From a virus (lineage: Duplodnaviria > Heunggongvirae > Uroviricota > Caudoviricetes), in IMG/VR virus record IMGVR_UViG_2526164630_000029, positions 1-5,487 of that record: a stretch of DNA of 5,487 bases. The stretch is one strand, 5' to 3'. The translations under genes and the position numbers were made by a program. Position 1 is the first letter of the stretch. Every line of letters starts with the position of its first letter. The notes below the pieces were generated by a model, which worked only from the letters and a program-made list of their open reading frames with translations, searched no databases and had not been told where the DNA came from. Positions 868-1,608 of the stretch are shown here, piece by piece.

Positions 868-1608
868 ATGACACAGACAGAATCAGCGATTCTGGCGCAT
901 GCCCGGCGGTGTGTGCCTGCGGAGTCGTGCGGCTTCGTGGTGAGAACGCCGGAGGGGGAGCGGTATATCCCTTGTGTGAATATCTCTGCAGAGCCGGAGG
1001 CGTATTTTCGTATTGCACCGGAAGACTGGCTGCGGGCAGAGATGCAGGGGGAGATTGTGGCACTGGTCCACAGTCATCCCGGTGGTCTGCCCTGGCTGAG
1101 CGAGGCCGACCGGCGGCTGCAGATAAAAAGTGCACTGTCCTGGTGGCTGGTCTGCCGGGGGAAATTCATAAATTCCGCTGTGTGCCACATCTGACAGGAC
1201 GGCGCTTTGAGCACGGGGTGACGGACTGTTACACGCTGTTCCGGGATGCTTATCATCTGGCGGGGACTGAAATGCCGGATTTTGAGCGTGAGGATGACTG
1301 GTGGCGCAACGGTCAGAACTTTACCTGGACAATATGGCGGTCACCGGCTTTTACCGGGTGCCCCTGTCCTCTGGACAGGCGGGCGATATTCTGCTGTGCT
1401 GCTTTGGTGCTTCGGTACCGAACCATGCCGCCATTTACTGCGGCAACGGTGAGCTGCTTCACCATCTGCCTGAACAACTGAGTAAACGGGAGAGGTATTC
1501 CGAAAAATGGCAACGACGAACGCATTCTGTCTGGCGTCACCGCACTGGCACGTATCTGCCTTCACGGGGATTTACAACGATTTGGCCGCCGCCTCAGCCT
1601 GTATGTGA
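868..1608 (+). CDS. K: Tail tip assembly protein K (lambda gpK-like; N-terminal JAMM/MPN-type domain plus C-terminal NlpC/P60-type domain), interrupted by three apparent 1-nt deletions
   Basis: ATG at 868, 6 nt after the L stop. Segment 1 (868-~1160) has the MPN/JAMM motif HSHPGGLPWLSEAD. Segment 2 (ORF 909..1481 frame, ~1161-1318) reads EIHKFRCVPHLTGRRFEHGVTDCYTLFRDAYHLAGTEMPDFEREDDWWRNGQN. Segment 3 (ORF 1301..1705 frame, ~1319-1542) reads YLDNMAVTGFYRVPLSSGQAGDILLCCFGASVPNHAAIYCGNGELLHHLPEQLSKRERYSEKWQRRTHSVWRHR. Segment 4 (1543-1608) reads HWHVSAFTGIYNDLAAASACM and ends at TGA 1606-1608. Each junction is a -1 shift. The start at 868 is inferred from the sequence; the lambda annotation starts K further in, at a position that is ATT (1012) here. 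Confidence 0.82.

Follow-up and report, generated by a model that had tools for sequence, protein, structure and literature searches.

A C missing from the K/I gene overlap of a lambdoid prophage contig of Escherichia coli DEC11C is probably an error of the deposited consensus

Introduction

The tail tip genes of bacteriophage lambda (NC_001416) follow each other in the order L-K-I-J, and K (14276-14875) shares its last 103 nt with I (14773-15444), which is read in another frame. K has a JAB and a NlpC/P60 domain. [quoted passage not shown]

The closest described systems are lambdoid prophages that carry sodC, which are found in the E. coli O103:H2 strain 12009 (NC_013353.1, 2290044-2295630), in O45:H2, in UTAK-4 and in the Stx2a phage Stx2_EH2201. 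In these prophages L, K and I are intact. Draft and long-read assemblies with consensus indels offer a comparison of another kind, since they also show clustered private 1-bp indels, few substitutions and a short contig bounded by repeats.

Here we analysed a window of 5,487 bp, by which we mean the whole stretch of DNA under study, with a lambdoid tail tip module in which K and I are both interrupted within their overlap. One C is absent at position 1543. Its absence is private to the contig, five sister 1-bp deletions are private as well, and the repaired proteins are identical or near-identical to those of the intact relatives.

Results

Gene content of the window

The window is the complete contig AIGX01000086.1 (5,487 bp) of the assembly GCA_000250155.2, a 2012 draft genome of E. 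coli DEC11C. The DEC genomes, said to be those of Hazen and colleagues from 2012, were reportedly sequenced with 454 and/or Illumina, which was given no weight in the argument. DEC11C is listed as O45:H2 of clonal complex 20, the complex to which the O103:H2 strain 12009 also belongs (PMC6028524).

The gene order is the end of M, then L, K, I, sodC on the minus strand and the 5' part of J, which makes up a lambdoid tail tip module. Gene L for the minor tail protein L (164..861, plus strand) resembles the "prophage A" type from strain 12009 over about 330 nt at its N-terminal end, and its true stop is the TAA at 859-861. Gene K (868..1608, plus strand) codes for a tail assembly peptidase with Prok-JAB and NlpC/P60 domains, which has 247 aa when repaired. 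Gene I (1507..2185, plus strand) codes for a Lambda_tail_I protein of 226 aa when repaired and has its true stop TAA at 2183-2185. The cargo gene sodC for a Cu/Zn superoxide dismutase lies between I and J (2376..2903, minus strand). It is intact and is the only complete gene of the contig without an indel; its product of 175 aa has the length of WP_000649829.1 in all close relatives. Of gene J for the tail tip attachment protein (3037..5487, plus strand), the first 2.4 kb are present before the gene leaves the contig end. In the annotation of the contig, K appears only as a 108-aa JAB fragment, and the annotated proteins EHX00341.1, EHX00342.1 and EHX00343.1 are frameshift products.

The order L-K-I-J is common to lambda and the window, and so is a K with JAB and NlpC/P60 domains, which in the window were seen in the repaired K. 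In contrast to lambda, the window has sodC between I and J, and as deposited it has frameshifts in L, K, I and J, which are absent in lambda. The K and I proteins belong to the gpK and gpI families without anything unusual, and their overlap is that of lambda, without new biology. The sodC prophages have a gene content identical to that of the window and are 96-97% identical to it overall and about 99.5% identical from position 500. Six deletions of 1 bp and one insertion set the window apart from them, as do its first ~500 bp, which belong to another prophage type present in the same genomes.

One C is missing in the K/I overlap

A sequence-only reading of the window had proposed that K and I overlap out of frame as in lambda, with I starting at the ATG of 1507 and K ending at the TGA of 1606-1608, and that both frames break together near 1543. 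On rechecking, the overlap (1507..1608, plus strand) was found as proposed and the coordinates and translations at the break were correct. The overlap measures 102 nt as deposited and 103 nt, the length in lambda, when the base is restored. As deposited, the open reading frame 1507-1608 codes for a chimera of 33 aa with the translation MATTNAFCLASP|HWHVSAFTGIYNDLAAASACM*, of which residues 1-12 are from I and the final 21 are the C-terminus of K. The body of K, read in the open reading frame 1301-1705, continues to ...SVWRHR and is then out of frame until 1705.

The alignment to intact prophages showed that exactly one base is lost at 1543. At this site (1542..1543, plus strand) the relatives have CACCG-CC-ACTGG (CACCGCCACTGG), whereas in the window only one C is left, at 1543 (CACCGCACTGG). 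The same one-base gap was seen against the Stx2a phage and against UTAK-4, the closest complete-genome copy. The prediction that a base is missing in the overlap was therefore borne out. The example given for it was right in the loss of one base and wrong in taking a G as the lost base (CCGGCACTG), since a C of the CC doublet is gone. Insertion of one C at 1543 rejoined the frames of K and I, so that a single correction serves both genes, as had been expected; K then ends with ...WRHRHWHVSAFTGIYNDLAAASACM* and I starts with MATTNAFCLASPPLARICLHGDLQRFGRR.... Since K and I are both read through the overlap, one dropped base shifts both of them, and the two corrections therefore coincide.

Within the 301 bp around 1543, the gap was the sole difference from at least 10 complete genomes. 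The extra C was present in 28 of 28 related prophage copies matched at 1543, which came from phage records, viral contigs and other E. coli assemblies. It was also present in 119 of 119 matched contigs of the public scans, which are not independent evidence at 1543 because all of them had been selected with the intact 23-mer.

The corrected translations were checked by alignment. The repaired I was 100% identical to the I protein of 12009, and the repaired K had both gpK domains, with Prok-JAB at residues 3-105 and NLPC_P60 at 111-224, which are on one polypeptide only when 1157, 1319 and 1543 are all repaired. Among 89 full-length K copies from metagenomes, 85 were single-frame and ended in the repaired frame, and none of the 89 followed the 1301 frame.

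In the deposited sequence, translation from the I start would come to an end after 33 codons, at the stop of K, and yield a chimera of I and K. In K, the last 21 residues would be replaced by about 54 wrong ones. The body of I could restart only at the GTG at 1605 and would then be short of roughly 23 positions at the beginning of its N-terminal domain.

The start of gene I

The effect of the deletion on I depends on where I starts, because with a start at the GTG of 1605 the deletion at 1543 would affect K alone. This GTG (1605..1607, plus strand) overlaps the K stop in the sequence GTGA and is the RefSeq start of I in intact prophages, where RefSeq/PGAP gives an I of 193 aa from the equivalent position (locus L003 at 1804-1906 and loci L018-L027). 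In the window it is the first canonical start of the I body, as had been noted before, and no ATG, GTG or TTG lies upstream in this frame.

With its residues 15-97, the long form of I matched positions 3-83 of the 83 in the Lambda_tail_I profile (PF06805) and scored 59.2 bits, the cutoff being 23.8. The form that starts at 1605 covered only the profile positions 26-83, at 37 bits. A start at 1605 therefore removes 33 codons including about the first 23 Pfam positions, close to the earlier estimate of about 30 residues. Residues 1-224 of the repaired I aligned with residues 1-223 of lambda gpI (223 aa, PDB 8iyk_I) with E = 7.4e-95, and in two distant solved homologues of gpI the alignment began at query residues 13 and 19. 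Residues 137-223 of the repaired I aligned with chains of 9e7m. The gene callers chose the long I start where K was already broken.

We rejected the GTG at 1605 as the genuine start of I, since the Pfam profile coverage, lambda gpI and the solved homologues are against it. The start is probably the ATG 99 nt upstream, giving 226 aa, and the 193-aa RefSeq models would then lack 33 real N-terminal codons. The sequence-only reading had named two things that together would refute it, namely I homologues that genuinely begin at the equivalent of 1605 and K homologues that follow the 1301 frame to 1705. Neither was found: the Pfam profile and the lambda gpI alignment require residues upstream of 1605, the K homologues keep to the repaired frame, and the deletion lies within true dual-coding sequence.

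The deletion belongs to a series of 1-bp indels

Compared with UTAK-4, the window has seven 1-bp indels, which are six deletions and the insertion at 860. The deletion at 1543 (CC to C in the K/I overlap) is one of six private 1-bp deletions, with five sisters on the same contig. All positions refer to the plus strand. In L, a deletion at 753 (CCACCAC to CCACAC) shifts the cysteine-rich C-terminus, and the insertion at 860 (AAA to AAAA) lies in the spacer between L and K. K has lost a base at 1157 (G6 to G5), which is at the boundary of the JAB and NlpC/P60 domains, and another at 1319 (AACC to AAC). In I, a base is lost at 2125 (GGACAT to GGCAT, outside a homopolymer), and in J at 5277 (TCGGAG to TCGAG). 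Of the six deletions, a single one affects a long homopolymer (G6), whereas four fall in doublets and the one at 2125 lies outside any repeat.

These deletions divide K into four segments: frame 1 is read for residues 1-99, frame 3 for 98-151, frame 2 for 152-226 and frame 1 again for 227-247. As the three deletions at 1157, 1319 and 1543 sum to -3, the final 21 codons return to the frame of the start codon. I is in three segments, which are codons 1-12 before 1543, the body at 1543-2124 and the last ~20 codons past 2125. As deposited, neither I with its breaks at 1543 and 2125 nor K with its four segments has an uninterrupted reading frame. The repair of 1543 alone rescues neither gene fully, because the shifts of K at 1157 and 1319 and that of I at 2125 remain.

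The number of substitutions was low. Compared with the 11 closest complete-genome copies, the window had no more than 12 private substitutions beyond position 500, and of these two are alignment noise at the 860 insertion. Private deletions were found in none of these 11 control copies. Against UTAK-4 there was one mismatch in 1500-3000. The alignments of the window showed no IS element, no large deletion and no nonsense mutation. The repaired I matched proteins on 63 contigs exactly, in its 226-aa and 193-aa forms, including BAI31022.1 of O103:H2 12009. The repaired L and K proteins had no exact match in the protein look-ups, which are uninformative here because the allele combination (G at 1374, a type-A N-terminus of L and a variant C-terminus) is unrepresented.

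The deletion at 1157 is the only one of the window that was also seen in other assemblies, including long-read assemblies. G5 at this site was found in 14 complete E. coli genomes and on 24 contigs (loci L005-L014), sometimes in two prophages of one genome, and in 0 of 98 metagenome contigs. The recurrent G5 is either a systematic homopolymer miscall of long reads or a real slippage hot spot.

Occurrence of the deleted and the intact form

A 71-mer across 1543 in the deleted form had no exact match in 1,748 complete E. coli genomes, which provided 5,607 homologous places for comparison and where the best match was 71/72 with one gap. Scans of IMG/VR, the GTDB species-representative genomes and metagenomes gave no match to the deleted form, whereas the same scans gave 3 (IMG/VR), 2 (GTDB) and at least 120 (metagenome contigs) for the intact form. 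The 1543 deletion was absent from the complete genomes of the same clonal complex (e.g. 12009 and O45:H2 FWSEC0003). None of the five deletions outside the G run was present in the panel of close relatives, which included 12009 and other O103:H2 and O45:H2 copies. Among about 100 metagenome copies, the bases lost at 1157, 1319, 2125 and 5277 were always present, and the base lost at 753 was present in 81 and possibly absent in one. The frameshifted products EHX00341.1 and EHX00343.1 were found on contig AIGX01000086.1 alone.

Frame-split L, K or I genes occurred in 3-5% of about 90-100 metagenome copies. Four contigs with more than one frameshift were inspected. Three were visibly error-rich or long-read: the metagenome contig L126 had 27 gap openings over 1.5 kb, L092 had 24 over 2.3 kb, and the copy of E. 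coli SJ7 (L023, NZ_CP044315.1) had 8 private 1-bp insertions. The fourth was the window.

Two proteins of 246 aa and 279 aa (P0047 and P0049) from other genomes, which cluster with the frameshifted I product, were considered as carriers of the 2125 frameshift and rejected, because they shift later, at ...DEGGAERSW.... Their frameshift near the C-terminus of I (...DEGGAERSWLSGG...) is independent; it enters the same out-of-frame tail as the one at 2125, from another site.

Repeats and mosaic structure

Strain 12009 has nine copies of the module. Positions 1-620 of the window were 99.8% identical to its prophage A (at 866 kb). At the sites where A and B differ, the window was A-like up to about 500 and from about 1300 on like B, the 12009 copy at 2.29 Mb (loci L029 and L020). 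The prophages A and B of 12009 do not differ over the intervening 800 bp. This mosaic is either a real recombinant or a mis-join of the assembly across the repeat. A 5.5-kb contig that ends within M and J is the typical output of a draft assembler from such repeats.

Two clusters of substitutions, at 745-756 (3 sites) and 1250-1271 (5 sites), were unlike both 12009 copies, and the cluster at 745-756 consists of alleles of other prophages (e.g. loci L015, L021, L025 and L027). They suggest a third donor type or mixed reads in the segment that A and B have in common.

Copy A of 12009 differs exactly at the 1543 site, where it is lambda-like (CACCGGGCATGG). A mixing of A and B in the consensus at 1543 was considered and set aside as unproven speculation, as the window has only B-type bases over 1300-2360.

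Discussion

The C at 1543 is probably missing through an error of base calling or of the deposited consensus and not through a mutation of the bacterium, a reading of the sequence comparisons to which we give a probability of about 0.75. The excess of indels argues for it, since six private deletions stand beside no more than 12 private substitutions, and so does the restriction of the variant to one assembly when the intact form is abundant. Signs of decay are missing, as seen from the identity of the 301 bp, the single mismatch in 1500-3000 and the identical repaired I. The contig is short, derived from a repeat and a mosaic of two prophage copies, and frame-split copies of L, K or I are rare, the other inspected contigs with more than one frameshift being error-rich or long-read. 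SJ7, L126 and the long-read assemblies with G5 at 1157 have the same look as the window. They differ from it in that the deletions of the window are mostly in doublets and not in long homopolymers, which is unlike the classic signature of homopolymer errors and argues against an artefact. Frameshifted defective lambdoid prophages are also common in the E. coli lineage concerned, and sodC is untouched, as expected if the phage functions alone decay. The probability that by chance none of the seven indels falls into sodC, which is 10% of the sequence, is about 0.5. The error would have arisen in base calling or when several near-identical copies of the prophage were merged into one consensus. 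Without it, the DNA would be an ordinary L-K-I-sodC-J module of a lambdoid prophage, as in the clonal complex of O103:H2 12009. In that module K (JAB and NlpC/P60 peptidase) and I (with an N-terminal Lambda_tail_I domain and a C-terminal tail tip plug) have 103 nt in common, in different frames.

If the deletion were real, this prophage of DEC11C would be a remnant in decay, defective in its tail and still carrying sodC as a useful cargo. A 1-bp slippage in the CC doublet would have broken the C-terminus of K and at once parted the start of I from its body, as one among several inactivating indels of L, K, I and J. We regard this as unlikely. Several complete genomes with related prophages have J, I or L annotated as "frameshifted", and the frame-split L, K or I copies of the metagenomes (3-5%) and the G5 allele in 14 complete genomes are in line with real lesions in such genes. 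All four tail genes are struck and sodC is spared, at sites that are mostly not long homopolymers. The proportion of lesions does not fit, however. In mutation-accumulation experiments with E. coli, substitutions and small indels arise at roughly 10:1. With this ratio, 10 substitutions would be accompanied by about one indel, and six or more have a Poisson probability of about 6e-4, whereas the window has six private 1-bp deletions beside at most 12 private substitutions and none in the I protein. All six deletions are of 1 bp, in the absence of larger deletions, IS elements and stop mutations; the decay of a pseudogene would be expected to bring a load of substitutions and other types of lesion that match the indels in number, and this was not observed in the window. 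The five deletions outside the G run are also missing from the close relatives, and in about 100 metagenome copies none was firmly seen, with one possible case at 753. A programmed recoding, in which ribosomal frameshifting or transcriptional slippage in the overlap would produce a K-I or I-K fusion, is highly improbable. One programmed frameshift (G/GT) is indeed used in tail operons of the lambda type, and the deposited sequence does contain the small I-K chimeric frame at 1507-1608. However, all intact relatives encode K and I unshifted at 1543, the deleted allele is in no other sequence searched, and CACCGCACTGG has neither a slippery heptamer nor a long homopolymer. A programmed frameshift was rejected because a slippery site is lacking and the shift is not conserved.

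The contig AIGX01000086.1 carries at least seven 1-bp indels, which is a quality flag, and its proteins EHX00341.1, EHX00342.1 and EHX00343.1 are unsuitable as reference proteins. The site at 1543 is a textbook case of how one base dropped in a dual-coding stretch leads to two coincident frame breaks. Even a real deletion would make this one more defective lambdoid prophage, which are common in the lineage. With K and I truly lost, and L and J damaged as well, the assembly of the tail would be expected to be abolished. That a real loss in the 103-nt dual-coding segment turned off two tail assembly genes at once, within an unusually indel-driven shutdown of a sodC prophage, appears doubtful; if true, overlapping genes would act as "two-for-one" targets in prophage domestication.

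The searches for the module also returned two contigs from other bacteria. A 3408-bp contig of Streptomyces flavalbus (L151, NZ_JBHTEB010000006.1) was 94-97% identical to the module over its whole length, with many gaps, and this 3.4-kb contig is almost certainly a contamination. A contig of Luteibacter yeojuensis (L150) shared the exact 23-mer, and megablast showed no wider similarity to it.
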